NCBI GenBank assembly: GCA_046483985.1
Contig: JAWOCD010000021.1
Coordinates: forward strand, 1-64,000
Source of the DNA: Promethearchaeia archaeon
Lineage (GTDB): Archaea > Asgardarchaeota > Lokiarchaeia > Sigyniarchaeales > SOKP01
Length of the DNA: 64,000 nt
Reading direction: 5' to 3'
A model generated the notes under the pieces. It did no database searches, was not told the origin of the DNA, and worked only from the letters and a program-made list of their open reading frames with translations. A program made the translations under genes and the position numbers. Shown here one piece after another: positions 10,009 to 33,784 of this stretch. The stretch's first letter is position 1; the number at the start of each line of letters is the position of its first letter.

Positions 10009-10410
10009 TTAATAATTGGGTATGGGTGCTATATATTTCTCAGAGCAATAAGTTATGGTCCCAATTAATTCCTTGAAATCAAATGGTTTTTCTAGAAAGC
10101 AAGTAGCTCCCACAGAGAAGGCTAACTCCTTTATTTTATTATCGGCGCTAATAAAAATAATTTTCACCTCTTTATTATATTCTCTAATTTCTTTCGTGGT
10201 TTCGATTCCATTTTTAACTGGCATATGATAATCCACTATTATAAGGTCGGGTTGTTCCTTAATGTCTTTCAATAACTCTATGGCGGTTTGCCCGTTTAAA
10301 GCCCTACCTATTATGTGGAATCCGTGCAATGATAAAAAAGCGTTATAAATTTTCTGTAAGGTTAGATTATCATCAATAATAAATATTTTAATTTTCATTG
10401 CTAAGTTCAC
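10009..10410 (-). CDS. Single-domain response regulator (CheY-like)
   Basis: IIDD, phosphoacceptor D in DYHMP, SA and EKPF motifs. No output domain. Confidence 0.92.
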   Translation of the reverse strand: MNLAMKIKIFIIDDNLTLQKIYNAFLSLHGFHIIGRALNGQTAIELLKDIKEQPDLIIVDYHMPVKNGIETTKEIREYNKEVKIIFISADNKIKELAFSVGATCFLEKPFDFKELIGTITYCSEKYIAPIPNY

Positions 10411-10566
10411 CTGAAATCCTTCAATATATTTTTCTTCATTAATTCAATTAACTTTATGATATATAGTTATATTATTATATAATAATATTTAAATCTTTTG
10501 AATATGTTCAAAGACGGAAAGACATAATTATTGGATTATTTCTAAAAAGATTCTTATATAGTTATC

Positions 10567-10581
10567 ATGTGATTTTCACAT
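10567..10581. promoter_or_regulatory. Inverted repeat ATGTGA-N3-TCACAT in the divergent intergenic region
   Basis: Perfect 6-bp arms between the divergently transcribed receiver and kinase genes. Confidence 0.3.
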
Positions 10582-10748
10582 AGGATTTAACTTTTTAGTT
10601 TCCAATGCCAATCTTTTTATTGAAGTTCTCTTATTATTTGTAATGATAAAATATAATTTTGATAATTTAAAGTATAATTAATTAAAGATCATTTTAATCA
10701 GAAATCATCGTTTAATGCCCGATAAAAACCAGTAAAAACGGTAAGAAT

Positions 10749-12878
10749 ATGAAGAAAATAACTAACGCTAAATCAGCGGAAATTTCCTCACAGGCAAAAG
10801 GTGAGTTATCTCAAAACTATGCAAATTTGGATAGATTAAATGATCTTATTTTTGTTTTAGATAAGGATTTAAATATCCGATATATAAATACCAATGATCC
10901 CCTTGAAAAACTCAATTATGACCCTCAAGAATTAGTAGGAAAGCCAATTTCAGCGATAATTTCCCGAAATTACAAAGGAACTTTTGAACAAGCACGGACG
11001 AAGCATACTCCGATTGAATTACAGTTCAAAAAAAAGGGAGGAGGCAAGTTATGGTATGAAATTCTCTTTGGAGAACCTAACCACCAGGATGATACTTCGG
11101 AATATATCTTAAGTTGCCGGGATATTACACAACGAAAAAAAAATCAAGAAGCGATAAACTATGAAATTCAATTACAAAGTATTTTATCAGATATATCAAC
11201 TCAATTTACCGACCTTAAAAATATTGAAAAGAAAATAGGAAATACTCTTGAAAGACTTGGAACCCTAAGCGATTCAAGTAGAGTTTATATTTTCTTATAT
11301 GACTTAGAAAATGAAGTAATGAGTAATGAATTTGAATGGTGTGCTAAGGGAATCAATTCGCAAATCGACGAACTTCAAGAATTAGCTTTATCTAATTTCC
11401 CATGGTGGATCAATAAGCTGGAAAAAGATGGAATTATTAGAATTAGTAGTCTATCGGACTTACCAAATGAGGCAAAATCTACAAAGCAAACTTTAAAAGC
11501 TCAAGATATTAAATCTCTTTTAGTACTTCCCCTTCATATCAGGGGGAAAGTCTCTGGATTTATAGGGTTTGATGACGTATATGAAACTTCAAAATGGACT
11601 AATAAGGATCATATGCTATTAAAAATCTCATCCGAGATTATTAGTAATGCGATTGAAAGGAACCAAGTTCAAAAAAGAATAAGATCTTCTGAAAAAAAAT
11701 ATCGGGAAATCTTAGAAAATATAAAAGAGATCTATTTTGAGGTCGATTTAAAAGGGAACCTTAAATTTTTTAATAATGCTTTGCCCCAAATAACCGGATA
11801 TTCTAAGGATACTCTCTTAACTATGAATTTTCGAGACCTTATTGTAGATGAACATCAAGACTATGTATTTAAAAAATTTAATCAAATGTTTAGGGGAAAA
11901 AAGGGGACTTCCTCCATAGAATTTAATTTAATCGTAAACGACGGAGATGTTCTCACTTTTGAAAGCTCTACATATTTAAAGCATGATTCTCAAGGAAAAA
12001 TTATTGGTTTCTATGGATTTGGAAGAGACATTACAGAGAAAAAGAAATATTTAGAAATGCAACAAGAGTTCAACAGAAAATTAGAAAAAGAAGTAGAAAA
12101 ACGGACGGAAGAACTAAATGAAGCACTCGAACAACAGAAACTTTATATGGATGAAATTCTCAAATCTTCAAAATTTAAGTCAGAATTTTTAGCAACAATG
12201 TCTCATGAATTGCGAACACCCTTAAATGCGATCATCGGATTCACAGATCTATTATTGCAAGGAGTCTATGGAGCACTTAATGAAGAGCAAGAAGAATTTG
12301 TGGAAGATATCAAATCTTCGGCCGAACATCAATTTGATATGATAAAACAAATTCTAAATATTTCTAAAATCGAATCGGGACAATTAACGCTAAATTTAAA
12401 GAAATTTTCTCTCACTTCTGTGGTCAATCAACTTAAATCAAGCTTACGCCCCCTCTATAAGAAAAAAGGTCTTTCATTTATCGTAAAAGGACTAGGGGAA
12501 GATAAACAAATTGTGGCAGATCCAATACGTTTCAAGGAGATATTACTAAATTTACTCAGTAATGCAATAAAATTTACTATGGAAGGAAAGATAACCTTAA
12601 TTATTAAAGAAGGATATAATAGTTGGAAATTTAAGGTAAAAGATACTGGTATTGGGATTGCAAAAGAAGATTTTGATAAAATATTTAAAGAATTTGGGAG
12701 GGTTGATTCGGCATATGTTCGTTCCACATCTGGGACTGGATTAGGGTTATCTCTCACAAAACGTTTGGTGCATTTACATGAGGGAGAGATAAGTTTTAAT
12801 AGTTTATTAGGTATGGGATCCGTCTTTAAATTTACAATATCTAAGGAATTGGAACAAGAATTAGAAAATAATAATTAA
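10749..12878 (+). CDS. Soluble histidine kinase PAS-GAF-PAS-HisKA-HATPase
   Basis: H-box SHELRTPLN, N-box NLLSNAIKF, DTGIGI and GTGLGL. GAF segment (EWCA.GI...GFIGFD). PAS/PAC RDIT motifs. No TM segment. Confidence 0.95.
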   Translation: MKKITNAKSAEISSQAKGELSQNYANLDRLNDLIFVLDKDLNIRYINTNDPLEKLNYDPQELVGKPISAIISRNYKGTFEQARTKHTPIELQFKKKGGGKLWYEILFGEPNHQDDTSEYILSCRDITQRKKNQEAINYEIQLQSILSDISTQFTDLKNIEKKIGNTLERLGTLSDSSRVYIFLYDLENEVMSNEFEWCAKGINSQIDELQELALSNFPWWINKLEKDGIIRISSLSDLPNEAKSTKQTLKAQDIKSLLVLPLHIRGKVSGFIGFDDVYETSKWTNKDHMLLKISSEIISNAIERNQVQKRIRSSEKKYREILENIKEIYFEVDLKGNLKFFNNALPQITGYSKDTLLTMNFRDLIVDEHQDYVFKKFNQMFRGKKGTSSIEFNLIVNDGDVLTFESSTYLKHDSQGKIIGFYGFGRDITEKKKYLEMQQEFNRKLEKEVEKRTEELNEALEQQKLYMDEILKSSKFKSEFLATMSHELRTPLNAIIGFTDLLLQGVYGALNEEQEEFVEDIKSSAEHQFDMIKQILNISKIESGQLTLNLKKFSLTSVVNQLKSSLRPLYKKKGLSFIVKGLGEDKQIVADPIRFKEILLNLLSNAIKFTMEGKITLIIKEGYNSWKFKVKDTGIGIAKEDFDKIFKEFGRVDSAYVRSTSGTGLGLSLTKRLVHLHEGEISFNSLLGMGSVFKFTISKELEQELENNN

Positions 12879-12899
12879 TCAAAAGATAAGGAGTAGAAT

Positions 12900-13538
12900 A
12901 TGGAAGTATATGAAATCATTAAAAGTGAAATAGAAAAATACCCCTTTATTACGATAATAGGAAAATATGACCAAGTATTAGGTCCGAGAGCATTATACTC
13001 TTCGGTAGAATTCGAAGATAAGCAATTTGTTCGAAATCTTTTGCGGGATGCATTGAATACGAAAAACGAATATGTAATTTTGGACTTTGAGAAATTCTAT
13101 TCCCAAATCAGTAAAATTGAGGTCAAGGATCCAAATGCTCGTGGAGGAAAACAGCTTTATGCAATAATTCTTTTAAGACATGGAAATATGCCTCTTCTTC
13201 CAATTTTGCATTTCAAAAGAATTGAAATGATGTTTCATAAAATTGGGGAGGATAAGATTCTTGCAGATAATGCGGAGGCATTTAAGAAATTTGTTCAAGA
13301 GGTAAATGAAATTTATTTAAATAAAAACGAAATTTTACCTCTTGAATCATTAAATCTCCAAATTCGTAGTGGAGTAAATACAATTCAAGGATTTTGCCAA
13401 TTAATATTGCAAGAGAAGAAAAAGAAAGGAGAAATTTCGGAAGAAAATGTCCTGAAGTATGTAAAAATGATGTTAGATTCCTGTGATGAGATAATCAATG
13501 GATTAAAAAACCACTTGAACGGATCTCCAAATAAATAA
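12900..13538 (+). CDS. uDENN/longin-like domain fused to a His-less HisKA(DHp)-like helical hairpin
   Basis: N-terminal IIGKYDQVLGPRALYS and ARGGKQLYAIILL resemble Asgard uDENN/longin. C-terminal NLQIRSGVNTIQGFCQLIL aligns with SHELRTPLNAIIGFTDLLL of the upstream kinase. Confidence 0.6.
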   Translation: MEVYEIIKSEIEKYPFITIIGKYDQVLGPRALYSSVEFEDKQFVRNLLRDALNTKNEYVILDFEKFYSQISKIEVKDPNARGGKQLYAIILLRHGNMPLLPILHFKRIEMMFHKIGEDKILADNAEAFKKFVQEVNEIYLNKNEILPLESLNLQIRSGVNTIQGFCQLILQEKKKKGEISEENVLKYVKMMLDSCDEIINGLKNHLNGSPNK

Positions 13539-13584
13539 AGAAACAATTATTTGATTGTCTATATATTTTTAGGAGAACTAAGAA

Positions 13585-14454
13585 ATGGCTAATAAGAAAT
13601 TAATATTAACTGGCCCCCCCAATACGGGAAAGACAACTATTAAGCGTATTTTTTTTGAGGGTGCAAACCCCCTCAAATTATTAAAGCATTCTCTTAGGCC
13701 AACACGCGGAATAAATTCAAGTGTTTATTCCTTATTTAACGAAAAATTGGGAGTATTTGATCTTGCCGGTCAAGAAAATGAGAATTGGTTTGATAAAGAT
13801 AAGGAGGTATTCCAACATGCAAGCGTTGTTCTCTGTATCTTTGAAATTAAGAATTCCCTAAAACTTATCGTTGATTTTATTTTAAGATTAATTAAAATCA
13901 AAGAGCAACTTAATCTTGAGAACTCGGAAATAATAATCTTTTTACACAAAATTGATTTAGTCCAATCTTCTTATTGCTACGAGAAAATAAAAGCATTAAA
14001 ATCATTTTTTAAGCTAAAATATCCCGACTTGTTAAAAATTCAAATATTTAAGACATCTGTAGTAGAAGAACACTTCTTTGACACATATTACATTATCTTG
14101 GATGTCCTAAATCTCATATTTAAGAAGAATTTAATTGAAATTAGCCACGAGGAATTTGAGGGTTTAAAGAATGAATTATCCATTTTACTGAAATCCGATG
14201 TGCAAGTCAAATACAGTAAGCACGATTTAGCAAATAAATTCAATATGACCTTTCCACAAATTGAAGATCATCTAAAACGCCTTAAGGATTTGGGATTCAT
14301 AAAATTTTTTGAAAATGATCCTCTGTATTTTCAATTATCAAAACGAGCTCTCTACTTTAAACGGGGAATTTTTAAAGAACAGAGAAAAGTAGACCCAACT
14401 CGGAAGAATAAAGGACTCGAACTTATCTACACTTTTAGTAAATTACAAAATTAA
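13585..14454 (+). CDS. Rag/Gtr-like small GTPase with C-terminal winged helix
   Basis: G1 GPPNTGKT, G2 PTRG, G3 DLAGQ, G4 HKID, G5 TSV. C-terminal DLANKFNM..PQIEDHLKRLKDLGFI...FQLSKR is wHTH-like. Confidence 0.85.
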   Translation: MANKKLILTGPPNTGKTTIKRIFFEGANPLKLLKHSLRPTRGINSSVYSLFNEKLGVFDLAGQENENWFDKDKEVFQHASVVLCIFEIKNSLKLIVDFILRLIKIKEQLNLENSEIIIFLHKIDLVQSSYCYEKIKALKSFFKLKYPDLLKIQIFKTSVVEEHFFDTYYIILDVLNLIFKKNLIEISHEEFEGLKNELSILLKSDVQVKYSKHDLANKFNMTFPQIEDHLKRLKDLGFIKFFENDPLYFQLSKRALYFKRGIFKEQRKVDPTRKNKGLELIYTFSKLQN

Positions 14455-14903: not shown

Positions 14904-16211
14904 ATGGTAAAAGGATTAGTTCACTTAGGATGGGACAATAAAATTGGAGCTGTTATAGAATTTCAACATCCAAAAACATTAGAGATCAGTGAAGATATGA
15001 CCAATAGGATTTACATGGCACATACGGCTCAAGATTCCAAGAGCGAGGAAGATTATTTAACCGAGTTGGATGTAAACGATAAGGTTATTTTGAGTTATTG
15101 TGATAAATCTAGAGTTTCCGAAGTTGGGTATGAAATCCTTTTTATCATATTGGATGAACGGGAAAAAGTTAATTTATTTGGGTTAAAGAATAAAATTTTG
15201 CAATTTTCTCAAGAATTGTTTGCTTTACCGGAATCTGAAAGAAAAGGATATATCGAAGATAATCTGGACACTTTTTTCCCGAAAAAACAGGAACGAAAAA
15301 TTCTTTTTTTGGGAAGAGCAGGGATCGGGAAAACAAGTATTAAAAAACTCATTTTTGAAGGAAAAAACCCAAAAGAATTAATATATAATCCTTTGTCCCC
15401 TACACGTGGTCTCTCTCCATCAGTTCATTCTTGGTTAGATTTGGATTTAGGGGTATTTGATTCCTCTGGACAAGAATTTGATAATCTTCTCGAGAGTACA
15501 ACGGATAAGAGATTTGCTTTTCAAAATGCAAGCGCAGTTATCTATATTCTTGATTATCCCAGCTGGATTGGTCAAAAGAATCAGCTCTTAGAAGATATTG
15601 AAAGAATATCTCAAATAATGGAAAATAATGAATACGATTCTAAATTAATCATCTTTTTTCATAAAATTGATCTTATTAATAATTATAAGAAATTTAGGAA
15701 TCAAAAAATTACAGAAATTACTGATAAGATACAAAATATTGCAAATGTTCCTATATATTTCACAAGTATTTACCCTAAATATCTTTATAGCCTTTATAAT
15801 GCATTCTGCGAGATACTGGGTATGATTTCTAAGCAACACGAGTATTTAAAAAACTTACTTGATGAAAAGATTAAGGATTATTCCAAAACAATGGCTTTTA
15901 TTACAAATCCCGATCATAGCATAGTTGCTCAATCAATCTCCAAAGATTTTGATGTAAGTTTAGTAAACCATATACAGAAATTAACAGCCCAGCTTAATCA
16001 AAGTTTTGCTGATATGGTTAAACAAGATAATATTAATTATTTGCTCATGTCAAGTTATAAAAATTTGACAGTTATTATGAAACACCTTAATTTGCCGGAA
16101 TATAATATTGCAAAAATTATTTGTGTTTCAAAGACATTAAAAAATAAAAAATTAGTTCAACTGGCTCATCAATTCGGAATAAATTTAGGGAAATTAGAAA
16201 TAGAATATTAG
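14904..16211 (+). CDS. uDENN/longin-like - Rag-like GTPase - roadblock-like fusion
   Basis: N-terminal WDNKIGAVIEFQHP..IYMAH. G1 GRAGIGKT, G2 PTRG, G3 DSSGQ, G4 HKID, G5 TSI. C-terminal MAFIT.PDHSIVAQS is roadblock-like. Confidence 0.8.
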   Translation: MVKGLVHLGWDNKIGAVIEFQHPKTLEISEDMTNRIYMAHTAQDSKSEEDYLTELDVNDKVILSYCDKSRVSEVGYEILFIILDEREKVNLFGLKNKILQFSQELFALPESERKGYIEDNLDTFFPKKQERKILFLGRAGIGKTSIKKLIFEGKNPKELIYNPLSPTRGLSPSVHSWLDLDLGVFDSSGQEFDNLLESTTDKRFAFQNASAVIYILDYPSWIGQKNQLLEDIERISQIMENNEYDSKLIIFFHKIDLINNYKKFRNQKITEITDKIQNIANVPIYFTSIYPKYLYSLYNAFCEILGMISKQHEYLKNLLDEKIKDYSKTMAFITNPDHSIVAQSISKDFDVSLVNHIQKLTAQLNQSFADMVKQDNINYLLMSSYKNLTVIMKHLNLPEYNIAKIICVSKTLKNKKLVQLAHQFGINLGKLEIEY

Positions 16212-16256: not shown

Positions 16257-17747
16257 ATGTCAGAATCTGCAGAAAAAATCATTAAATTCTTTTGTGAAAG
16301 ATTTTTAGATATTGATTATTATCCCAGTAAAATTAAGAAAGTTCGAAATCTCTCTATTGAGAAGCTTAAAGGACTTAATAAAAAAGACATTAAAAGATTA
16401 GAAGAGATAGGAATTAAAAAAATAAATGACTTTCGTAATATTCAAAGATCCGACTTTGAAGATATTACATCGAAAACTAAAATTAAAAAATCGGTATTAC
16501 AGAATGGACTAATTGCTGCGACGTTGATCGCAAACGCGTGGCAAAAAAGAAAACTTTATACAAAAAAGATGAAGAAAAAGATCACAGTTGCGGGCTTGGA
16601 TTATGCAGGAAAGACTTCAATCATAAATCGATTATTTAAAAATCAGCAATTTGAAGATGTTATAGATACGGAACCGACCAGGGGCGCGAAAATCGAAGAA
16701 TATGAATCAAACCGTCTAAATTTGGTTATATGGGATCTTGGAGGGCAAAAAAACCATATTGATGAGTATCTTTCAGAACCAGAAAAGTTTTTTCTTCAAA
16801 TAAATGTACTTATATATGTTGTAGATGTCCAAGATGACACCAGGTATGATGAATCTGTGCAATATTTAAGAGATATCATAGATATCATTGATTTCTTAAA
16901 TGAATATCCTTATGTTATTGTATTGCTGCATAAGGCGGATACTGACGTAATGAATGACCCAGATTATCAGATAAGAATCGAATATTTAACTGAAAAGATT
17001 TCGGAAGTTTTTGAAGTCAGAAAGAATCCATTACAGTATGAAATGATCCCCACAAGTATATATAATATGTATGCAAACGAGCCAGAAATAGCCAGAGACA
17101 TTAAATTTATATTTTCAAATAAGAATAAACAAGCAGAAATAGAAAAACCGAAAATCAGCGAAGAAATTAAAGAAGAGATCAAAAAGATCCCGAATATCGA
17201 AAAAAAGCTTCAGAGTATTCCAGTTATGGAAAAGAAGATTCAAAAGATTCTGGAAATCAACTTACAATCCATGAATAAAGTAAAATCTGAATTAAATGAA
17301 ATTAAACGAATAATGGGACAATTGGTCCCCTCTTCTGTGTCTCAGTCTCTATTTTCGATACCTTTTAAAAAAGTATCTTCCAGATTTTTAGCAGAACAAC
17401 AAAAAGAAGAGGAAGAGAAGAGAGAGAAAGAATTAAAAAAGAAAAGAAAAAAAGGAGAGGGCCCCCCGCAGAGATTGGATTCTCATCCAAAGGTTAAGAA
17501 AAAGCGAAAGGATGAAGAGCCAAAAGAATCAGAACAAGAAGAATTAGGGCAAGATGAAACTGGATCATTAATCCCTCCATCAACATCTGATTTAGAGCAT
17601 TTGAAACCTCCACCTAATCCTCCTAAATCAAAATCTCCGTCGACGCAAATGAAAAATCCCGCAGCAGTTAGAGGGGATATTTTATCAGAACTAAAAGAGA
17701 TGTTCGTAAAGAAAGGATTAGCCAAACGTAAAAAACGTAAAAATTAA
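16257..17747 (+). CDS. HhH-like - Arf-like GTPase - coiled coil - Pro-rich tail protein
   Basis: HhH-like IEKLKGLNKKDIKRLEEIGI. G1 GLDYAGKT, G2 PTRG, G3 WDLGGQ, YVVD, G4 HKAD, G5 TSI. PPPNPP tail. Confidence 0.85.
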   Translation: MSESAEKIIKFFCERFLDIDYYPSKIKKVRNLSIEKLKGLNKKDIKRLEEIGIKKINDFRNIQRSDFEDITSKTKIKKSVLQNGLIAATLIANAWQKRKLYTKKMKKKITVAGLDYAGKTSIINRLFKNQQFEDVIDTEPTRGAKIEEYESNRLNLVIWDLGGQKNHIDEYLSEPEKFFLQINVLIYVVDVQDDTRYDESVQYLRDIIDIIDFLNEYPYVIVLLHKADTDVMNDPDYQIRIEYLTEKISEVFEVRKNPLQYEMIPTSIYNMYANEPEIARDIKFIFSNKNKQAEIEKPKISEEIKEEIKKIPNIEKKLQSIPVMEKKIQKILEINLQSMNKVKSELNEIKRIMGQLVPSSVSQSLFSIPFKKVSSRFLAEQQKEEEEKREKELKKKRKKGEGPPQRLDSHPKVKKKRKDEEPKESEQEELGQDETGSLIPPSTSDLEHLKPPPNPPKSKSPSTQMKNPAAVRGDILSELKEMFVKKGLAKRKKRKN

Positions 17748-23421: not shown

Positions 23422-23874
23422 ATGTTAGGAACCGAAAAAGGAAAACCCGTTGAAATCTTATTAGTCGAAGATAATCCAGGGGATGTGAGATTAACAAAGG
23501 AAGCATTGAAAGAAAGTAAAATCATTAACAATCTTCATGTGGTAGAGAATGGAATAGAAGCAATGAGTTTCCTTAAACAAGAAGGCGATTATAAGGATAT
23601 GCCAGAACCCGATCTTATCTTATTGGATTTAAATTTACCAAAAAAAGACGGAAGAGAGGTCCTTGCTGATATTAAGGAAGATGAGAGACTCAAAAGAATT
23701 CCAGTAGTTATATTGACCACCTCAAGTGCAGATGAAGATATCCTACATACATACAATTTGCATGCTAATTGTTTTATAACTAAACCGGTAGATATGAACC
23801 AATTCACAAAAGTTGTGAAAAATATTGGAGACTTTTGGTTCAGCATTGTAAAATTACCTAAGAGAGAGGATTAA
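23422..23874 (+). CDS. Single-domain response regulator, Rcp1-like
   Basis: ILLVEDNPGD, DLNLPKKDGREVL, IPVVILTTS, ANCFITKP and DFWF.IVKLP. Confidence 0.93.
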   Translation: MLGTEKGKPVEILLVEDNPGDVRLTKEALKESKIINNLHVVENGIEAMSFLKQEGDYKDMPEPDLILLDLNLPKKDGREVLADIKEDERLKRIPVVILTTSSADEDILHTYNLHANCFITKPVDMNQFTKVVKNIGDFWFSIVKLPKRED

Positions 23875-23907: not shown

Positions 23908-26502
23908 TTGAATAAGAAGGTAGCAGATTCAGAAATAGACATAATTTTAGTCGAAGACAATCCCGGAGATATCCGATTAGTTGAAGAGTTATTGAAACAA
24001 GCAAGAGATTTTAAATTTAGTTTTAGTTCTATTCAAACACTCGACAAGGGGCTTCAAAAAATTAAGAACTTTAATTTTGATATTATCCTTTTGGACTTAA
24101 GTTTGCCTGATAGCCGAGGTGTGACGACAATAAGAAAAACCCAAGAACACGCAAATAACACCCCGATTATTGTTTTAACTGGTTTAGCAGATGAGGAACT
24201 CGCGCGGCAAGCTATTCAATTTGGAGCTCAAGACTATTTGGTAAAAGGACAAATTAGGAGTAATCGACTTGTAAGGTCGATTTATCATGCTATTGATCGG
24301 AAAAGGATGCTGAAAAAGATCCACGATCTTGCAAGTTTTCCTTCCGACAATCCTTCTCCGGTTTTACGGGTCAATAAACATAAAATTTTATATGCTAATC
24401 CAGCTGCAAAATCACTCTTTGATATCAAAGATATCAAAAAAGGGGATAATATTCCAAATGTATTAAAAGGGTATATTAAAGAGGCATTCAATAATAACGA
24501 TATTGTCAATTGTGAAATCGAGAGAAAACAAAAAGATTTTTCTTTTATCCTTAAACCCATCAAGGAACTTGATTATATTAATATTTATGGAATGGAGATA
24601 ACGGAATTAAAAAAAGCAGAAAAAGCAAGAAGAGAAACACAAAAGCAATATAGTGAATTGTTCAATCATATAAATGATGCAGTATTTATCCATGATTTGG
24701 AGGGAAATATACTCGACTTCAATAAAAAGGCTATGGATACCCTTGGATATTCCCGAAAAGAACTAATACAATTAACTGTTATGGATTTTGATGCTCCCGA
24801 ATTTGCCAAAAATGTTCCAAGAAAAATCCAGGAAATAAAACACAAGGGCCAATCAATAGTTGAGACAGCTCATCAAACTAAAGAAGGAAAGATTATCCCA
24901 ATAGAATTGAACTCGAAGATTATTAATTATGAAGGAAAAGACGCAATCCTCAGTGTAGCCAGGGATATAACTGAAAGAAAAGATTATGAAAAAAAGATAG
25001 AGAAATCAGAAAAACGCTATAGGGATCTGTTCGATAATTCTCCCTACCCTATTATTATCGCTGATTTAGAGGGAAAAATTCTCAACTTTAGCGTCCCCCT
25101 CCTAAGAAAAAGCGGATACACGAGAAAAGATATGATTAATAAATCATTTAATGAAATAGAATTTATTCCTAAGGAATATTCAAAATATTTTAACAGAATT
25201 TTTCAAAAACTTCAAGAAGAATCAAAAGTTAAACCCTTAGAAGTGAAATGTCTCCCAAAGAAAAAAGATTCGTTGTGGCTGAGACTCAATTTCTCGTTAA
25301 TTGATATAGAAAACGAGAAAATGGTCTACATATTAGGGCAGGATATTACTGAACTAAAGAGATCCAAACGAAAATTGTATAAAACGGAGAGATCGCTGCA
25401 AGAATTAAATACATTAATAGAAGATGCCCCATTAGCAATAGTTCTATTGACTCCAGAAGGAAAAATTCTAAGAATGAATAGAGAAGCAATCGATTTATTC
25501 GAGTGTTCCCATAAAAGGGAATATGAACACAATATATTTCATTTTTTCCCGGAAAGTGAATTAGATAAAATAATTTCACATTATAAAGAAAATATATATC
25601 ATCCAAATAGAAATAAGAAATTCGAAACATATATAAAAACCCTTAAAGGCAAAAAAACAGAAGTGGAAATAACATCCACAATTTTTAAAATTTCAGATCG
25701 TATTGTTATCCAATCATTTATATCAGATATAAGCGAAAGGAAAGAACATGAAAAAAACAGGCAAAAATTATTGGACCAATTATTAACTTCACTAGAAGTT
25801 AAATCAAGATTTTTTGCAACAATATCCCATGAATTGAGAACTCCATTAAATGCAATCATTGGTTTTTCCGACATCTTATTAGAAGAATCTTATGGAGAAT
25901 TAAATGAGGATCAGAAGGAGTTTTTAGAAGATGTGTTTTCAGCTTCCAATCACTTGGAAGAATTGATAGGATCGGTCTTGGATTTTTCAAAAAGTGAAGC
26001 AGGAAAATTGAAATTAAATAATAAAAAATTCAATATTTGGGAAACAATAAAGGAAGTAAAAACCCTAGTAAAGCCAGCCTACGAAAAAAAGGGACTTGAA
26101 TTCATAGTGCAAGGTATGAAAAAAGAAGATACTATTGTTGCAGATCCACTCAGATTCAAGCAAATCCTTGATAATTTGTTAACTAATGCGATAAAATTTA
26201 CAGAGCAAGGATATGTCAAAATTAAAGCAATACAACATTCAGATCATTGGGAGTTTCGGATAAAGGATACGGGAGTAGGGATTAAAAAAGAAAACTATGA
26301 TGTGGTTTTTCGGGAATTTGGAAGGGTCGAAGATGAGATTATTAAAGAGATTTCGGGGTCTGGGATAGGTTTAGCTCTCACAAAGCGATTGGTTCAATTA
26401 CATGGAGGAGAAATTTGGTTTGAAAGTGAATATGGAAAAGGGACTACATTTATCTTTACAATCCCAAAAAGAGAGGGAAAATTTCCGAAACAAAAGAATT
26501 AA
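23908..26502 (+). CDS. Hybrid kinase REC-(PAS)x4-HisKA-HATPase
   Basis: N-terminal receiver (VEDNPGD, DLSLPDS, GAQDYLVK), PAS repeats, SHELRTPLN, NLLTNAIKF, DTGVG and GSGIGL. Confidence 0.95.
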   Translation: MNKKVADSEIDIILVEDNPGDIRLVEELLKQARDFKFSFSSIQTLDKGLQKIKNFNFDIILLDLSLPDSRGVTTIRKTQEHANNTPIIVLTGLADEELARQAIQFGAQDYLVKGQIRSNRLVRSIYHAIDRKRMLKKIHDLASFPSDNPSPVLRVNKHKILYANPAAKSLFDIKDIKKGDNIPNVLKGYIKEAFNNNDIVNCEIERKQKDFSFILKPIKELDYINIYGMEITELKKAEKARRETQKQYSELFNHINDAVFIHDLEGNILDFNKKAMDTLGYSRKELIQLTVMDFDAPEFAKNVPRKIQEIKHKGQSIVETAHQTKEGKIIPIELNSKIINYEGKDAILSVARDITERKDYEKKIEKSEKRYRDLFDNSPYPIIIADLEGKILNFSVPLLRKSGYTRKDMINKSFNEIEFIPKEYSKYFNRIFQKLQEESKVKPLEVKCLPKKKDSLWLRLNFSLIDIENEKMVYILGQDITELKRSKRKLYKTERSLQELNTLIEDAPLAIVLLTPEGKILRMNREAIDLFECSHKREYEHNIFHFFPESELDKIISHYKENIYHPNRNKKFETYIKTLKGKKTEVEITSTIFKISDRIVIQSFISDISERKEHEKNRQKLLDQLLTSLEVKSRFFATISHELRTPLNAIIGFSDILLEESYGELNEDQKEFLEDVFSASNHLEELIGSVLDFSKSEAGKLKLNNKKFNIWETIKEVKTLVKPAYEKKGLEFIVQGMKKEDTIVADPLRFKQILDNLLTNAIKFTEQGYVKIKAIQHSDHWEFRIKDTGVGIKKENYDVVFREFGRVEDEIIKEISGSGIGLALTKRLVQLHGGEIWFESEYGKGTTFIFTIPKREGKFPKQKN

Positions 26503-26555: not shown

Positions 26556-28982
26556 TTGAATAAAACTAAGAGAATGGCATATAATAACTTACTAAAATAT
26601 TCATCGGATATTGTATTTATCTTTGACTTACAAGGGAATTTTATTTCAGTAAATAATAATTTTCTTAAAAAGCTAAAGTACAGAAATAAAAAAAAAATTT
26701 CTGAGCTTAAAATATCCGATATCATTCATTTCTCAGAAAAAGAGTATAATGCCCCAGAATTAGTTGAAATCTTCAAGAAATCATACAAAAATAAAACCTC
26801 AGAGGATTTTCAATTAATTGGGAGAAAAAATGAGGAAATACCAGTGCGGGGGGATTCAATACCCTTTAAAAAAGAAGGAAAGGTTATTGGGATTTTAATT
26901 AGTGCTCGACATACTGCACAGAAAAAGAAACTTGAACATGAATTAAAGTTGAAAGAAACAGAAATCAAACAAATTTATCAAAAGAATCCAGAGATTAGAT
27001 TCTGGGATTTATTTCAGACAAAAGATAGTCAAGAATTATTTAGACAAAGCGAAAGACTGTATAAGAATTTATTTGACAACGCTCCGATTGGAATTTGCAC
27101 CATTGATAAAGAAGGCAAGATTTTACAAATTAACAAACGGGCGATGGAAGTCTTTCGTTCCGACGATTTTAGAATATTAACTAAGGATCTTAGTATTTTT
27201 AATTCTGATTTCTTTAATAACTCTGATTTTACTAAAACTTTAAAAAATGCTATAAAGACTGAAGAGACTACAAGTAAGACCATTAAGTTCTCACCAGATA
27301 AAGAATTCGAAAAATATCTTCATATTCGTATTGTTCCTCAATTTGACCAAAATAAGAATTTTATAAATCTTTTATGCATTATAGAGGATAGAACGAAATT
27401 AATTGAAGCTCAGCAGAGGTTAAAAGAATCTAAAGAGAGATATGAAGATATCTTTGATCAAATGGAACATATCATATATATTTCAGATCCCTCTACCTAT
27501 GAACTGTTATATGTTAATGACATAACTAAGCAAGCCTTCCCGGGGAAGATTATTGGAAGAAAATGTTACAAGGTATTTCAAGACCGGGACGAACCATGTC
27601 CCTTCTGTACAAATGATAAATTATTTGGAAAAAATCCAGAATCCCCCCATATTTGGGATTTTTATAATGAAAAGCTCGGAAAATGGTTTCATATAATCGA
27701 TCAATCAATTGATTGGGGAGGGAAAAAAGTTCGGCTAGAATTTGCAGAAGATATTACAAAAAAAAAAGAAACGGAGCAACAACTTAGAGGAGCAGAAAAA
27801 AAATATCAGGGAATTTTAGAAAATATTAAAGAAGGTTATTTTGAAGTAAATCTAAAAGGAGAATTTACACTCTGCAATAAGGCCTTTTGTAATATTCTAA
27901 AGGACTCAGCTGAAAGTATTTTGGAGAAATCCTACAAATCATTTATCGCTGAAGACTATAAGAAATATGTTTATGAAACGTTCTACGACGTTTATCAAAC
28001 GGGAATAATCAAACGGGCTTTTCAATTTCGAATAGTAAGAGGGGACGGACAGAAAAGATATGTTGAATCATCTATATATCTACGTCGTGGGAGGGATCAA
28101 AAAATAAAGGGATTTTCTGGGTTACTAAAAGATATAACTAAGAGGAAAGAGGGAGAAGCTCTGAGAAAAGAATTTAGGCAAGAGTTGGAAGAAGAAGTTA
28201 AAATACGGACTAACCAATTAAATGAGGCCTTAAAAAAACAACAGGCATATCTTGAAGAAATCTTAAAAGCGTCCGAATTTAAATCAAAATTTTTAGCAAC
28301 AATCTCCCATGAACTCCGAACTCCCTTAAACGCTATTATCGGCTTTGCAGACCTATTATTGGAAGGGTCATATGGAGGAAACCTCTCAGAAACCCAAGAG
28401 GGATTTATAGATGATATTAAATATTCCGGTAATCAGTTATTGAACTTGATTAATCAAATTCTAGAAATCTCCAAAATTGAAGAAGGTGGGATTAAATTAA
28501 ATAAAAAGGAGTTTTCTTTAAATAAAATTGTTACTCAGGTGGTTTCTTCATTTCGAAGTCTGATGGATAAAAAAGAATTAAAGATAGAAATAGAGAATTT
28601 ACAAGACAATATGAAAATAATTGCAGATCCTCTCCGAATAAAAGAAATCTTGAATAACCTCATCTCTAATGCCATCAAATTTACTGAAGAGGGGGTTATC
28701 ACTTTAAAACTCGTTGAGAGAAAAACGGAGTGGGAATTTCAGATTTCCGATACAGGAATTGGTATCGCCCAAGAAGACCATGAAATGGTTTTTAGTGAAT
28801 TTAATCAAGCAGGAGATCCAGATATATCCCCTAAAAAAGGGACGGGATTAGGATTATCAATTACAAAACGTTTGGTTGAACTACATCAGGGAAATATATG
28901 GGTTGAAAGTAAGCTTGGAGAGGGGACAACTATTTATTTTACAATTCCAAAAAGTAGTGCCTCAAGGAAACCTAGATCTTAA
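26556..28982 (+). CDS. Soluble (PAS)x4 histidine kinase
   Basis: SHELRTPLN, NLISNAIKF, DTGIG and GTGLGL. One PAS carries KCY...PCPFC. Confidence 0.95.
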   Translation: MNKTKRMAYNNLLKYSSDIVFIFDLQGNFISVNNNFLKKLKYRNKKKISELKISDIIHFSEKEYNAPELVEIFKKSYKNKTSEDFQLIGRKNEEIPVRGDSIPFKKEGKVIGILISARHTAQKKKLEHELKLKETEIKQIYQKNPEIRFWDLFQTKDSQELFRQSERLYKNLFDNAPIGICTIDKEGKILQINKRAMEVFRSDDFRILTKDLSIFNSDFFNNSDFTKTLKNAIKTEETTSKTIKFSPDKEFEKYLHIRIVPQFDQNKNFINLLCIIEDRTKLIEAQQRLKESKERYEDIFDQMEHIIYISDPSTYELLYVNDITKQAFPGKIIGRKCYKVFQDRDEPCPFCTNDKLFGKNPESPHIWDFYNEKLGKWFHIIDQSIDWGGKKVRLEFAEDITKKKETEQQLRGAEKKYQGILENIKEGYFEVNLKGEFTLCNKAFCNILKDSAESILEKSYKSFIAEDYKKYVYETFYDVYQTGIIKRAFQFRIVRGDGQKRYVESSIYLRRGRDQKIKGFSGLLKDITKRKEGEALRKEFRQELEEEVKIRTNQLNEALKKQQAYLEEILKASEFKSKFLATISHELRTPLNAIIGFADLLLEGSYGGNLSETQEGFIDDIKYSGNQLLNLINQILEISKIEEGGIKLNKKEFSLNKIVTQVVSSFRSLMDKKELKIEIENLQDNMKIIADPLRIKEILNNLISNAIKFTEEGVITLKLVERKTEWEFQISDTGIGIAQEDHEMVFSEFNQAGDPDISPKKGTGLGLSITKRLVELHQGNIWVESKLGEGTTIYFTIPKSSASRKPRS

Positions 28983-29506: not shown

Positions 29507-29890
29507 GTGATTTCTTACGTGCAAAATTTGAAATCAGATATGATTAATATCTTCAAAATGCTGGCAGATTCTACAAGACTCGACATCATCTATTTAGTGA
29601 AAAATAATAAGGAGTTATCTTCAGGAGAAATTGAAGATTCTTTAGATAAGAGTCAATCTACAATTTCCCAACATTTGAATAAACTTTGTAACGAGGGTTT
29701 GCTTGAATTCCGTATGGGAAAACGAAAGGATATTGACTCACGGCCAGTCAAGTTATATTCAATAAATGATAAGGAACTATTTACAATTCTTTCAAATTTT
29801 AAAAATCTCATTACCAAAATAAAAACAAATCGAGTAGAAGAAAATTTAGAAGTATTGACCGATTCAGATATATCAGATATTTTAGAATAA
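29507..29890 (+). CDS. ArsR/SmtB family transcriptional regulator
   Basis: FKMLADSTRLDII and SQSTISQHLNKL..EGLL. Confidence 0.9.
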   Translation: MISYVQNLKSDMINIFKMLADSTRLDIIYLVKNNKELSSGEIEDSLDKSQSTISQHLNKLCNEGLLEFRMGKRKDIDSRPVKLYSINDKELFTILSNFKNLITKIKTNRVEENLEVLTDSDISDILE

Positions 29891-29918: not shown

Positions 29919-30458
29919 GTGACTAAAAAAGGAAATTCCAACGATATAAAAGAGAGAGCAAAAATAATCCTTCTGGGATTAGATAACAGTGGGAAAACCT
30001 CTATAGTATATTCCTTGCAGAAGAGGAAAGGTCTGCATAATTATTCAAATATTAGCCCTACCAAGAACCATAATATAGAGGAAATAAATACGAACGAAAA
30101 GGAATATATTATCTGGGATATTGGGGGTCAAACAAGGAACAGAGAGGACTTCCTTTCAGAATTTGAAATAAAAGTCGAAGGAACAAACAAAATAATTTAT
30201 GTTATTGATGTGCAAGATATCGAACGTTATGACAAAGCACTTCAATATTTATCAGAGGTTATAGAAAATCTTAAAAAATGTTCCTTGAATGTAAAGATAT
30301 CTGTATTTTTGCATAAGTTTGATCCTCATTTAACTATAAACCGACAAAAGCTTCAAGAACTTATAAGAGAAATAGAAGATCTCATTCCCAATCAGTTTGA
30401 ATATAGTATTTCAAAAACTAGTATTTTTACGGTTTTCCGGAAAAAAGATCTATTATAA
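29919..30458 (+). CDS. Stand-alone Arf-like small GTPase
   Basis: GLDNSGKT, PT, WDIGGQ, IIYVID, HKFD and KTSI. Confidence 0.9.
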   Translation: MTKKGNSNDIKERAKIILLGLDNSGKTSIVYSLQKRKGLHNYSNISPTKNHNIEEINTNEKEYIIWDIGGQTRNREDFLSEFEIKVEGTNKIIYVIDVQDIERYDKALQYLSEVIENLKKCSLNVKISVFLHKFDPHLTINRQKLQELIREIEDLIPNQFEYSISKTSIFTVFRKKDLL

Positions 30459-30507: not shown

Positions 30508-32685
30508 TTAGGCTTTCGGAAGAGTAAAATAAAAGGTGCTTCCTTTATCTACCTCACTCTCAAACCAGATATCTCCTCCGTGAAGTTCCACGAGCCGTTT
30601 TGTAAGTGAGAGTCCCAATCCCGTCCCTTGTATTTTTTGAGTCTTATAATTATGGGATCTCCCAAACTCCCGAAAGACTGCATCATAATCCTCCGGAGCA
30701 ATCCCCATCCCCGTGTCTTCAACTTGAAATTCCCAATGATCACTTCTCTCTATCCCCCGCATTACTATCTTCCCTTCAGGAGTAAACTTAATCGCATTAC
30801 TTAATAAATTATATAAAATTTGCTTAAGGCGGATAGGATCGGCAATGAGTTTTCCATTCTTGGGAATTGAAATGGAGGTCTTTAGATCCTTTTGTTCATG
30901 CAAAGGTCGGATAATCGATTGAATTTCTGAGAGGATGTCCCAGAGATCGACCTTCTCTTTTACGAGCGAAATTTTCCCCGATTGGCTTTTGGAATGTTCC
31001 AAGACCTGATTTATAAGGGAGAGAAGATGTTTAGCGGAGGTTTTAATATCTCCGAGGAAACCCTTTTGGTCAGAATTTACATGACCATATACCTCTTCTA
31101 ATAGTAGGTCGGTAAATCCAAGAATTGAATTAATAGGAGTTCGCAATTCATGGGAAGTGGATGCCAAAAACCGGCTTTTAAATTCCAAATTTTTATACAA
31201 TTCTTCTATTAAATGATTCCGGACATTCTCAAATTCTTTTTCGCTGGTAATATCTTGGAGGGCGAGGATGACCTCTGACCAATCATCTTTTTTCTCTGGG
31301 ACCAGTTGTGCATGAATAGCCAAGATTAATTTTTTTCCTTGAAGGGTCTGCATTCTAATCTCGCCCGCATATCTTGACTTATTATTTATGAAGTGCTGGA
31401 TTATCTCGGATAACTTCTGAATGGCTGGGGGCGTAAAAATTTTTAACCGATTGGAACGCAAATGGCTTTTACTTTTACCCCCAAACAACTTTATAAAGTC
31501 GGTGTTTAATTCGTCGACTTTTATCTTATTAATCCATTTCGCAAGAGACTCCTCCGAGGCAAGTTTATCTATATGTTGATGAGAAGGAAGAGGAGAAGCA
31601 TCCAGATCTTTCTTGATTTCAGAAAGGTCTAACTCTGCTAAGGGGTCTGGTGAATTATTAAAAATCATCCTATACCGTCTCATAGAAGTCTTGATTTTTT
31701 TCTCGGACGCTTTTTGGGAAGTTATATCACGAAATATACCCATGACATACCGTTCTTTATCAATCTGCATATATCTTGAATGTACTTTAATTGGAATTTT
31801 ATGCCCAGATTTATTTTTGATAGTCGATTCGAACTTAATATCTCCCTCCGTTTTGAGTCTTTTTAACCGCCTTTTCACAGTCACTTTTTTCTCTTCCAAT
31901 TCCAAGTCAAATAGCGATTTGCTTAACATTTCTTTTTTAGAATATTGGAGTTTTTGGCATGCCGTTTTATTTGCATATAAAATATTCCCTTCAGTGTCAT
32001 GCAAGAGAATGGAATCAATTGCACCGTCTAATAAATTCGCCTTAATCCGGTTGCCTTTCTTAAGTCTGTTCTGATCCATCTCCAAACGGAGATTATAGAG
32101 TGCTAAGGCAAGATTACTTGCAACTTCCTTAAATAAGGAACGTTCGAAATCGTCAATTTCATAATCTTCATGTAGATCGAGTTTCAAGATACCGTAGATG
32201 GCCTCCTTATATTCCAATTTCATTAGTAAAGATGATTTCTGTTTATAAATTTCTTGGAGAGGACAATTCTTGCAAGCTTCCTTCCCCTCTTTGAAAGTAA
32301 TTATATTTTTGTTGTTACGGGCTTTATTGAAGCAAGGAATACTCTTTTTTGCCTTTAATCTGCTTTTTAGTTTTTCCAAATGATTGGGAGGGTATCCAGC
32401 ATTTGCGAACAAATCGAGATTTCCGTTGTCATCAAAATGGGCAATACAGGCACTGTAATATATTTTCGCATCTACAAAGATCTCGCATATATTCTCTAAA
32501 AAATTATCTCGGTTGGAGGTCCTAGCAATAAACTGATTTACATTACTAATTACTTGTAGGACTTGATTTACCCTACTTATTTTCTTAAACTTATGAGCTT
32601 GGTCCTCAATTTCCTGAGATAACCGTGCCTTATTCTCTTTTAAACTATTAATCTGTTCTAATAATTGATCAATCTTTTGTCCCAT
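30508..32685 (-). CDS. Soluble histidine kinase coiled coil-GAF-PAS-PAS-HisKA-HATPase
   Basis: SHELRTPIN, NLLSNAIKF, DTGMGI and GTGLGL. The GAF contains PCF...CKNCPL. Confidence 0.95.
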   Translation of the reverse strand: MGQKIDQLLEQINSLKENKARLSQEIEDQAHKFKKISRVNQVLQVISNVNQFIARTSNRDNFLENICEIFVDAKIYYSACIAHFDDNGNLDLFANAGYPPNHLEKLKSRLKAKKSIPCFNKARNNKNIITFKEGKEACKNCPLQEIYKQKSSLLMKLEYKEAIYGILKLDLHEDYEIDDFERSLFKEVASNLALALYNLRLEMDQNRLKKGNRIKANLLDGAIDSILLHDTEGNILYANKTACQKLQYSKKEMLSKSLFDLELEEKKVTVKRRLKRLKTEGDIKFESTIKNKSGHKIPIKVHSRYMQIDKERYVMGIFRDITSQKASEKKIKTSMRRYRMIFNNSPDPLAELDLSEIKKDLDASPLPSHQHIDKLASEESLAKWINKIKVDELNTDFIKLFGGKSKSHLRSNRLKIFTPPAIQKLSEIIQHFINNKSRYAGEIRMQTLQGKKLILAIHAQLVPEKKDDWSEVILALQDITSEKEFENVRNHLIEELYKNLEFKSRFLASTSHELRTPINSILGFTDLLLEEVYGHVNSDQKGFLGDIKTSAKHLLSLINQVLEHSKSQSGKISLVKEKVDLWDILSEIQSIIRPLHEQKDLKTSISIPKNGKLIADPIRLKQILYNLLSNAIKFTPEGKIVMRGIERSDHWEFQVEDTGMGIAPEDYDAVFREFGRSHNYKTQKIQGTGLGLSLTKRLVELHGGDIWFESEVDKGSTFYFTLPKA

Positions 32686-33121
32686 ATCTCTTCTCTTTCT
32701 CCTAAAAATAATAAAATTTATTAAATTTGTTAACAGATGAAATTTAGACCATTTACCGATTTATCTTTTTTTTCAAATGAGTTAAATCTTTACTTTCTTT
32801 AATTGTTCCTCATGAATTAGGGTTATAAGGAAACGTATTTGACTTTTCCATCCCATATCACTGAACTATTATTACCCTATTAAAATATCCAAATATCGCT
32901 TAGCACAATATAAATCTAAAAACTTATATATAAATTTAATGAAATCCTCAATATTCTCCGTTAATTTTTGAAATATATTTATTAAATACCGTTTTTTGAA
33001 AAAAACCAATATTTTCAAATTTTGTTTAAGGTATTGCCTATAAATAATTTCCACTATGCCAAAATCTCTTGACAAATTTCCTTCAAAAATCAGTATGAAA
33101 AACCTAATTTATAAGATTAAG

Positions 33122-33391
33122 TTAATATGCTAATTTCCTCAAAGGTGCTTTTTTCGCCCCCAAAATTCCAAATGCTAATGTGGGTATTTGTCTTTTTATC
33201 CACAAATTCAAGTACCTTATCACCTCTCGTTGGTTCTAATAAGGTGGAATACCACGCCCTAAAGGACGGTGCTTTCTCGCACTTCAGTGGTAAAATAAGA
33301 ATGATTGTTCTTTCTTGGAAGACAAAGGGCTATTGAACTTTTTCCGTTATTTTCCAATCCAAAAATAATAATTTTTGTGGGGTTGCTCCAT
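33122..33391 (-). pseudogene. Decayed Arf-like GTPase gene interrupted by a 46-bp mini element
   Basis: The minus strand reads KIIIFGLENNGKSSIALCL (G1) before the insert and LLEPTRG...IWNFGGE (G2, degenerate G3) after it. There is a frameshift after the ATG at 33391, and the 3' half is lost. Confidence 0.8.
33244..33289 (-). mobile_element. 46-bp collapsed IS200/IS605-derived element
   Basis: TTTAC|CACTGAAGTGCGAGAAAGCACCGTCCTTTAGGGCGTGGTATTCCAC is a left end fused to a right end through the shared CCTTTAGGGCG hairpin. Removing it restores the GTPase frame. Confidence 0.8.
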
Positions 33392-33439
33392 CTCTATCGG
33401 ACCACTTGTTGTTTAGATAAAATCCCTCTTAGTTCCCAA

Positions 33440-33784
33440 TCATGATAAAGTATCTTCAATATCTATGTCTGTTAACTCTTCAATTTTATCTGTATTAAGA
33501 TTAGACATATATGAACTAAGTAAGTTTAATATTCGATATATTTGAGGATCTTTTATTTTATAATACTTTTTTCTGCTCTCTTTTCTCACTTCTAATAAAT
33601 TTGCGTTTTCTAATTTCTTCAATTGTTGAGAAATAGAAGATTGGCTCTTATTTAAAGATTTATGGATTGTAGTCACTATTCTTTCCTTACCATCTTTTAA
33701 AAGATTCAAAATATCTAAACGGGTGGTATCACCCAAGACTTTTAAGAATTCCGCAAGTTTCTCATTTAAACTCATTTTAATCAC
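33440..33784 (-). CDS. ArsR/SmtB family transcriptional regulator (paralog of 29507)
   Basis: LKVLGDTTRLDIL, SQSSISQQLKKL..ANLL and KYYKI. Confidence 0.9.
   Translation of the reverse strand: MIKMSLNEKLAEFLKVLGDTTRLDILNLLKDGKERIVTTIHKSLNKSQSSISQQLKKLENANLLEVRKESRKKYYKIKDPQIYRILNLLSSYMSNLNTDKIEELTDIDIEDTLS

Follow-up and report, generated by a model that had tools for sequence, protein, structure and literature searches.

Gene content of the island

The window analysed here is a stretch of 64,000 nucleotides, positions 1 to 64,000 of contig JAWOCD010000021.1 from the genome of a Promethearchaeia archaeon (assembly GCA_046483985.1, Lokiarchaeia), and positions are relative to it unless another contig or locus is named. 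Within this window, a 24-kb island at 10009-33784 holds, according to the open reading frame (ORF) listing and Pfam, five HisKA kinases, three stand-alone receivers, six intact GTPases and one GTPase relic. A sequence-only reading had proposed that bacterial-type phosphorelays feed eukaryote-like GTPase switches at this place. On balance, we lean towards regarding the region as a conserved accessory signalling island of the Lokiarchaeial order containing Promethearchaeum, in which a His-Asp phosphorelay and Rag GTPases belong to one pathway working by the mechanism set out below. The genes are the following, with Pfam matches and their E values in brackets.

10009..10410, minus strand: REC10009, stand-alone receiver, 133 residues (Response_reg 6.1e-23)
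10749..12878, plus strand: HK10749, PAS-GAF-PAS histidine kinase (HisKA 4.6e-20, HATPase_c 2.1e-25; H-box SHELRTP)
12900..13538, plus strand: adaptor (ADP), 212 residues, NPRL2/FLCN-type longin (1-140) and histidine-less DHp hairpin (145-207) (AlphaFold2 model, pLDDT 84)
13585..14454, plus strand: G13585, Rag-like GTPase with C-terminal winged helix (Gtr1_RagA 1.5e-12, HTH_5 0.0014)
14904..16211, plus strand: G14904, GTPase with longin, Rag G domain and C-terminal domain (Gtr1_RagA 1.2e-23 at residues 132-339)
16257..17747, plus strand: G16257, GTPase with a 100-residue N-terminal extension and a coiled-coil/Pro-rich tail (Gtr1_RagA 8.7e-24, Arf 7.9e-21)
17781..19316, minus strand: G17781, 511 residues, G domain, winged helix-turn-helix (wHTH), longin-like domain and coiled coil (Gtr1_RagA 7.1e-14)
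19340..20872, minus strand: G19340, paralogue of G17781 (Gtr1_RagA 1.1e-14)
20998..21372, plus strand: REC20998, stand-alone receiver, 124 residues (Response_reg 6.3e-25)
21510..23360, plus strand: HK21510, PAS histidine kinase (HisKA 7.9e-13, HATPase_c 3.9e-29; H-box SHDLQEP)
23422..23874, plus strand: REC23422, stand-alone receiver, 150 residues (Response_reg 1.4e-20)
23908..26502, plus strand: HK23908, hybrid histidine kinase with a receiver and three PAS domains (Response_reg 4.4e-20 at residues 12-122, HisKA 3.5e-21, HATPase_c 1.9e-28)
26556..28982, plus strand: HK26556, PAS histidine kinase (HisKA 2.3e-21, HATPase_c 1.3e-29)
29507..29890, plus strand: ArsR-type HTH protein (HTH_5 1.4e-13), 28 bp upstream of the 29919 small GTPase
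29919..30458, plus strand: small Arf/Rag-like GTPase, 179 residues (Arf 1e-24, Gtr1_RagA 1.2e-20; G4 motif HKFD)
30508..32685, minus strand: HK30508, GAF/PAS histidine kinase (HisKA 5e-17, HATPase_c 5.6e-30)
33135..33375, minus strand: GTPase relic, a pseudogene (tblastn with the 29919 GTPase: P-loop at 33295-33375 and a G3-like WNFGGE at 33135-33173, in different frames)
33440..33784, minus strand: second ArsR-type HTH protein (HTH_5 6e-12), upstream of the GTPase relic

All five kinases possess a DHp domain with the phospho-acceptor His, in an H-box of the SHELRTP or SHDLQEP kind, and a HATPase_c domain, as expected of HisKA-type two-component kinases, and none contains a transmembrane-like segment (maximum Kyte-Doolittle 19-residue mean 0.94-1.31), which indicates that they are soluble, as had been claimed. 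One of them, HK23908, proves to be a hybrid with its own N-terminal receiver, so that the number of REC domains in the island rises to four. Response_reg is the sole Pfam match above the curated cut-off in each of the three stand-alone receivers, in agreement with the earlier description of receivers devoid of an output domain, and inspection of their sequences indicates that the acidic pocket, the phospho-acceptor Asp, the Thr/Ser and the Lys are intact in all three. Thus, the whole gene content previously listed for 10009-33784 is confirmed, including the six intact GTPase genes and the pseudogene, whose remains are split over two frames. The two ArsR-type HTH genes (29507 and 33440) were absent from that earlier tally.

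The layout had also been read correctly: the run 10749-14454 has gaps below 50 bp, namely 21 bp from HK10749 to the adaptor and 46 bp from the adaptor to G13585, and G19340 is divergent from REC20998, with a 125-bp spacer between them. REC10009, on the minus strand, is likewise divergent from this kinase-adaptor-GTPase run. A 449-bp non-coding gap (14455-14903) separates G13585 from G14904 in an otherwise tight run, and it probably marks a rearrangement point since, in relatives, kinases come after G13585. A look for transcript evidence listed no RNA run containing this sequence; one DNA run, from a freshwater sediment metagenome, contains a fifth of its sequence words.

The adaptor combines a longin with a DHp hairpin

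The 212-residue protein encoded between HK10749 and G13585, called an adaptor in the sequence-only reading, is real and of a type that suits this designation: it consists of an NPRL2/FLCN-type longin followed by a histidine-less DHp. As regards the longin, all 19 adaptor orthologues match Pfam Folliculin at a lenient E value (best 5.7e-5), the match in the window protein spanning residues 73-115, and none matches NPR2. A Foldseek search with the adaptor model places GATOR1 NPRL2/NPRL3, SEAC Npr2 and FLCN at the top, and VIA-align gives Z scores of 13.1 for NPRL2 (root-mean-square deviation 3.0, 133 aligned), 12.4 for the Lokiarchaeal longin 8yqg and 11.8 for FLCN, generic longins reaching 10.6 or less. 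Furthermore, the adaptor has one feature of GAP (GTPase-activating protein) longins and a candidate for a second. G28-P29 is invariant in the 19 orthologues and stands at the start of the second strand (28-34), and R81, within an ARGG sequence, is also invariant and lies in the beta4-beta5 loop, both placements being those of the AlphaFold2 model. A GP motif before beta2 together with an arginine finger is the mark of the GAP longins FLCN, NPRL2 and SMCR8, and Asgard longins with both features have been described, their partner GTPase being left open (PMC12290439). The motif and the invariant Arg of the adaptor match this signature, which makes R81 a candidate finger.

As regards the second part, hhalign aligns the adaptor hairpin with the DHp of the island kinases (E 1.3e-4), the Arg, Asn and Gly-Phe of the H-box being kept, and a weak HisKA match is returned by 9 of the 19 orthologues. 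The position of the phospho-acceptor His is occupied by Leu153 and the protein has no catalytic domain. The conserved positions common to the adaptor DHp and the kinases presumably include those contacting the receiver in kinase-regulator complexes. By sequence, the adaptor profile matches in the PDB only CheY-like receivers, with marginal E values (0.018-0.02) over 32 residues, and these matches were treated as noise.

A full-library profile search of 1.84 billion representative proteins returned 31 relatives of the adaptor. Two of them (P0016 and P0019, 388-391 residues) have a PAS domain ahead of the longin-pseudoDHp and are the only larger forms that contain the whole adaptor; a separate search of homologous proteins yielded no longer fused forms. 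These PAS-longin-pseudoDHp proteins tie the longin-pseudoDHp unit to sensor-kinase architecture. Another protein, found by way of the DHp hairpin (P0027, 556 residues), is made of six tandem HisKA (DHp) stretches with nothing else recognisable.

The island GTPases are of the Rag type

The earlier description of the GTPases as "Rag/Arf-like" stands in its first half only. All six intact GTPases match Pfam Gtr1_RagA above the cut-off, and all have an intact P-loop and DxxGQ together with HKxD as the G4 motif (HKID, HKAD or HKFD), the His in place of Asn being a feature of Gtr1 and the Rag proteins (Gtr1 motif, PMC3477016). On these sequence features they are to be classed as Rag-type and not as Arf-like. 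For G13585, the profile of its orthologues against the PDB is led by Gtr1 (2.7e-15) and RagA (1e-13), with Gtr2/RagC behind at 1e-7.

What follows the G domain, where Rag proteins have a C-terminal roadblock for heterodimerisation, is a wHTH in G13585 and a wHTH plus a longin-like alpha/beta domain in G17781. The AlphaFold2 model of G17781 (pLDDT 72) shows the G domain, then a winged helix of three helices and two strands (185-246), a longin-like domain of beta-beta-alpha-beta-beta-beta-alpha-alpha topology (286-412) and long helices (419-510). Its orthologues match Pfam HTH_45, HTH_34 and MCM_WH, and those of G13585 match several wHTH families at their C-terminus, weakly but recurrently. The predicted structure and these recurrent weak matches support the wHTH fusions that the sequence-only reading had put forward; a search of the ESM Atlas with the wHTH-longin part of G17781 gave no usable match. 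G19340 is 36% identical to G17781 over its full length, the two being tandem paralogues. In G14904, residues 1-126 (ESM Atlas model) resemble the longins of NPR2/NPRL2, DENND10/11 and Inturned (TM 0.64-0.76), and W10-D11 and G15 are invariant among its orthologues.

A third GTPase with a G domain and a wHTH, of the G17781 type (516 residues, HTH_45 3e-4), is encoded outside the island at 47505-49055 on the minus strand. Its neighbours are GNAT, Fic and nucleotidyltransferase genes and a 1323-residue Eco57I/MmeI-like type IIG restriction-modification gene.

Orthologous genes are linked in about 40 species

The adaptor was used as a single-copy marker for the island in other genomes. Of 40 relatives, 18 possess an orthologue that is 49-69% identical to it, with three families of the order represented. 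Up to 20 kb was fetched around these 18 genes, and every ORF was compared with the window and with the whole own genome. In the comparison with the window, 118 ORFs have their best match in an island gene, two in a gene outside the island and 44 in nothing. Against the complete own genome, 112 ORFs still find their best match inside the island and not among the roughly 35 other GTPases, 16 other kinases and 8 other receivers, which identifies these neighbours as orthologues and not merely homologues. The flanks of the island, on the other hand, are not syntenic among relatives. The sequence-only reading had named a lack of conserved linkage in related genomes as the outcome that would speak against it; the opposite is observed, with linkage in about 40 species of at least three families and under changed flanks.

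A scan with one genome per species gave 44 distinct adaptor loci, of which 42 hold clear orthologues (at least 50% identity), nearly all labelled Promethearchaeota or Promethearchaeia. Among them is the cultured Promethearchaeum syntrophicum MK-D1, with the island at 2,079,002-2,099,610 of NZ_CP042905.2. Hidden Markov models built from the G domains, kinase cores and receivers of the window were run on the 41 species-level loci with a full adaptor (536 kb) and detected 104 GTPase, 81 kinase, 48 receiver and 12 DHp-REC genes, densities around the adaptor that are about 20-35 times the averages of the own genome. A GTPase and a two-component gene occur together in 36 of these 41 loci, the remainder being short contigs. 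The conserved set comprises orthologous kinases and receivers, four GTPase types and the adaptor; since the same set recurs in about 40 species, its parts very probably work together.

Gene order points in the same direction as gene content. The adaptor is followed co-directionally by a GTPase of the G13585 type in 23 of the 41 loci (median gap 27 bp), and co-directional pairs are also formed by GTPase and kinase (13, 48 bp), by two kinases (20, 37 bp) and by two GTPases (19, 5 bp). A canonical arrangement, found in L041, L045, L065 and L067 and partial or pair-inverted in L035, L043, L052 and L059, starts with G16257, which is encoded upstream of the adaptor and divergently from it, at some loci after a kinase and a DHp-REC protein; it continues with the adaptor, G13585 and two kinases in succession and ends with G14904 and G17781 on the opposite strand, then a receiver of the REC20998 type and a small GTPase. 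In many genomes, including the own one, order and strand are shuffled and membership is kept. Orthologues of HK10749 are found at most related loci, and those of REC10009 adjoin the adaptor or kinases. In L015, L018, L024, L017 and L027, the orthologue of REC20998 (50-69% identity) and the G14904-G17781 pair point away from each other, and REC23422 has orthologues in L013 and L016 (70-76% identical).

The DHp-REC proteins (220-290 residues, for example L015:6991-7836(-) and L041:7170-8015(-)) consist of a weak HisKA stretch and, after it, a receiver, and lack a catalytic domain. In relatives they belong regularly to the island, adjoining the G16257 orthologue, and the presence of two copies on another contig of the own genome (C101:23445-25790) indicates that the window island has lost them.

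Presence and absence of the block

In the family of the window organism (f1, 24 genomes), 13 genomes have strong orthologues of the adaptor as well as of G14904, 9 have neither and 2 are discordant; most of the genomes lacking both are 91-100% complete. As kin are not independent, no P value was attached to this co-occurrence. Presence varies within five genera in the 24-genome sample (g2, g3, g5, g8 and g11) and, in a wider sample, concerns 9 of 28 genomes of g2 and 7 of 22 of g11. Genomes without the island have about 9 HisKA matches and those with it about 19, and 7 of the 9 island-minus genomes have no representative of the high-scoring HisKA type to which the island kinases belong. These repeated contrasts within genera indicate gain or loss of the whole block and point to an accessory island that occurs either as a whole or not at all, with differences even between members of a genus.

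Clustering within the own genome

The sequence-only reading had also asked whether kinase or receiver genes and GTPase-wHTH-longin genes of Asgard genomes lie together more often than shuffled gene order predicts. In the 4.06-Mb assembly of the own genome, where the window is contig C87, we found 41 GTPases matching the Gtr1/RagA model, 21 HisKA and 12 Response_reg matches. Eight of the 21 kinases have a GTPase no more than 5 kb away, where random placement would give 1.75 (P=0.0004). This excess is due to the island alone, and a genome-wide rule of kinase-GTPase proximity was rejected, no significant excess being found outside it. Taken together with the lone paralogue at 47505-49055, this argues that the association is specific to this module and is not a property of both families.

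A proposed pathway

Functional coupling of the island parts is well supported by the linkage described above, and the following order of events, read from domain content and sequence motifs, appears plausible. Soluble PAS/GAF kinases would respond to intracellular cues by phosphorylating the single-domain receivers. The phosphorylated receiver, or the kinase DHp itself, would then dock on the histidine-less DHp hairpin of the adaptor, and this docking would control the adaptor longin, acting on the neighbouring Rag-like GTPase, most likely as a GAP through the GP motif and Arg81. Finally, the nucleotide state of the GTPase would set what the fused winged helix binds, with the longin and the coiled coil contributing in the 511-residue type. 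In this way, modules borne by the GTPases would supply the output that receivers without an output domain need.

A structure prediction for the adaptor with G13585, GTP and Mg gives weak support, a slight nudge, to the contact between the two proteins. The complex scored 0.49 and the best of three controls 0.09, with 100% contact agreement between runs and a partner pLDDT of at least 83. In the calibration, from which this prediction differs by its own alignments and ligands, the mark was reached by 58 of 80 solved complexes and by 2 of 110 mismatched pairs, and scores of 0.60 or under comprised 7 of those 80 solved complexes and both passing mismatches.

Several observations weigh against the proposed pathway. 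The complex score of 0.49 falls in a range that the prediction tool itself rates as wrong more often than right. Regarding the adaptor, the Folliculin score of the window protein (18.8 bits) is below the curated cut-off of 23.3, its profile matched no FLCN or NPRL2 chain when compared by sequence with the PDB, and the margin of GAP longins over generic ones in the model comparison (Z 13 against 10.6) is modest. The equivalence of R81 with the FLCN R164/NPRL2 R78 finger is putative, being drawn from invariance and loop location. Regarding the output, wHTH domains can bind protein instead of DNA, and the G domain-wHTH paralogue at 47505-49055 has no two-component neighbour. Outside the island, only 3 of 16 kinases lie near a GTPase (1.24 expected, P=0.11) and none of 8 receivers does. 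Moreover, the relatives compared are kin, so that the linkage counts overstate independence, and the distribution is narrow: among 301 genomes across the phylum, the adaptor was detected in 26 of 68 genomes of one family, in 2 of 7 of another and in no other family. Confined to two families of one order and, within them, to about 40% of the genomes, the adaptor does not represent a mechanism common to Asgard archaea.

Alternative explanations

The best surviving alternative, which we nevertheless consider unlikely, is that two-component and GTPase genes form an accessory "sensory" block, kept together by co-regulation or co-transfer, in which the two systems operate in parallel without direct contact. 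Its patchy distribution and its polymorphism within genera are those of an accessory block, the window copy holds a broken GTPase gene, and the support from complex prediction is weak. However, the linkage outlasts internal reshuffling and the loss of flank synteny, adaptor, GTPase and two kinases follow one another in tight runs with gaps of 27-48 bp, and the adaptor combines, in one protein, the fold of a GTPase regulator with that of a two-component protein.

Reversed wiring, with the GTPase and longin as input and the phosphorelay as output, seems to us about as unlikely, though still a live alternative. The pseudo-DHp would then heterodimerise with a kinase DHp or sequester a receiver, and the nucleotide state of the Rag-like GTPase would switch the kinases. 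Such an arrangement would account for the pseudo-DHp being most similar to the DHp of the island kinases themselves and for the adaptor standing beside a kinase in 13 co-directional pairs. Histidine-less DHp proteins could indeed act as kinase inhibitors. Besides, conservon kinases and GTPases influence each other's interactions (PMC4316618). The domain content argues for the direction of the proposed pathway instead: the kinases have their own PAS/GAF sensors, the receivers lack an output domain, and the GTPases bear wHTH and coiled-coil modules, all of which fit kinase input and GTPase output.

A more far-reaching version of the pathway, which we regard as doubtful, would make the island a prokaryotic prototype of the Rag-GATOR1/FLCN axis. 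The adaptor would be a bona fide GAP for the RagA-like GTPase, switched by a phosphorylated receiver on its histidine-less DHp, and it may pair with the NPRL2-like WD-motif longin of G14904 as NPRL2 does with NPRL3. If this were true, bacterial-type His-Asp signalling would have been in direct control of Rag switches at a time when eukaryotic nutrient sensors had not yet arisen. The resemblance to the eukaryotic Rag/Gtr, GATOR1 and FLCN-FNIP system lies in the Rag-type G domains, the NPRL2/FLCN-like longin of the adaptor and the second, NPRL2-like longin on G14904. In contrast, the island comes without DEPDC5, Ragulator or a TOR kinase context, its input would be a His-Asp phosphorelay and not amino-acid sensors, G13585 has a wHTH where the Rags have their roadblock dimerisation domain, and GAP activity is here a prediction.

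That two families abundant in Lokiarchaeia cluster here by chance or through local expansion of paralogues could appeal to the 41 GTPase and 21 HisKA matches of the genome and to the G17781/G19340 tandem. This is hardly credible and was rejected: about 40 species share the linkage of true orthologues, the island supplies the best whole-genome match of 112 ORFs, the gene families are about 20-35 times denser around the adaptor than on average in the genome, and the parts are lost together.

Relation to known systems

Fusions of NPRL2-like longins with two-component domains were reported by Liu et al. (bioRxiv 10.1101/2020.10.19.343400), who also mentioned longin-Rag fusions and surmised that such regulators are under two-component control and that Asgard growth regulation is still centred on two-component systems. 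The NPRL2/FLCN-type longin with DHp, GP motif and conserved Arg of the adaptor is like the longins of that preprint and of PMC12290439, and the longin-Rag layout of G14904 matches the fusions mentioned by Liu et al. These works deal with domain fusions and motifs only, and not with a conserved island or operon that unites Rag-type GTPases, kinases and receivers; in the island, by contrast, the longin recurrently adjoins a Gtr1/RagA-like GTPase bearing a wHTH, and the DHp is histidine-less. Our search, which did not extend to subscription journals, found no published description of the island, of the pairing of adaptor and Rag-wHTH or of co-inheritance with kinases. The claim of an undescribed system is only partly right, since the fusion of longin and two-component domains and the idea of two-component control were already present in the 2020 preprint, which partly anticipated the island.

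Couplings of small GTPases with two-component proteins are known in Bacteria, namely conservons, MglA with RomR/Frz, and Rup1 neighbourhoods (PMC4316618), and two of them had been invoked as analogies. The actinobacterial conservon likewise brings together the kinase CvnA, the roadblock protein CvnB as a regulator of the roadblock/longin superfamily and the small GTPase CvnD, the latter and not a response regulator being the proposed output. It is however a fixed four-gene operon, with CvnC as its further member, with a membrane HAMP kinase carrying an LPxR tail, an MglA-type GTPase and no receiver, whereas the island has soluble PAS/GAF kinases, receivers, Rag-type multidomain GTPases and a longin-DHp regulator in shuffled order. 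In Myxococcus, a receiver-domain protein similarly links a phosphorelay to a small GTPase (MglA/MglB with RomR/Frz, PMC4316618), but those genes are unlinked to mglA, and the system consists of an MglA-type GTPase and a roadblock GAP, without a longin-DHp adaptor. Both parallels therefore remain useful as functional analogies, and membership of the island in either the conservon or the MglA/RomR group was rejected on the domain types.

Asgard genomes are rich in Rag-, Arf- and Rab-like GTPases and in longin and roadblock proteins, very few of whose partners or inputs are known. A GTPase gene is seldom placed together with that of its regulator in the genome, and the GTPase genes of MK-D1 are generally not in operons with roadblock or longin genes (Tran et al., PMC10933270). 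The island offers recurrent and concrete pairs: the longin-DHp adaptor with the RagA-like GTPase-wHTH, and G14904/G17781 with a receiver, with kinases in the same run. As the cultured P. syntrophicum MK-D1 possesses the island, the question can be addressed with a handful of soluble proteins. A direct coupling, if it exists, would reveal the way in which prokaryotic phosphorelays were once connected to GTPase switches of the eukaryote type.

Further observations

Within the island, an ArsR-type HTH gene followed by a small GTPase gene occurs twice (29507-30458 and 33135-33784), inverted around the 30508 kinase, the second GTPase being the broken one. Elsewhere in the own genome, a 1102-residue HisKA kinase is encoded between two small GTPase genes within 4 kb (C85:116570-121646).

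In relatives, two or three adjacent genes for proteins of about 515-620 residues flank the adaptor (L015:966-4208, L020:638-5656, L023:867-4215 and L029:1262-6473). They have no confident Pfam assignment and match GCS2 and Amidohydro_2 weakly, and copies in the own genome are located at C24:47340-52891, about 8 kb from a Rag-like GTPase (C24:60179).

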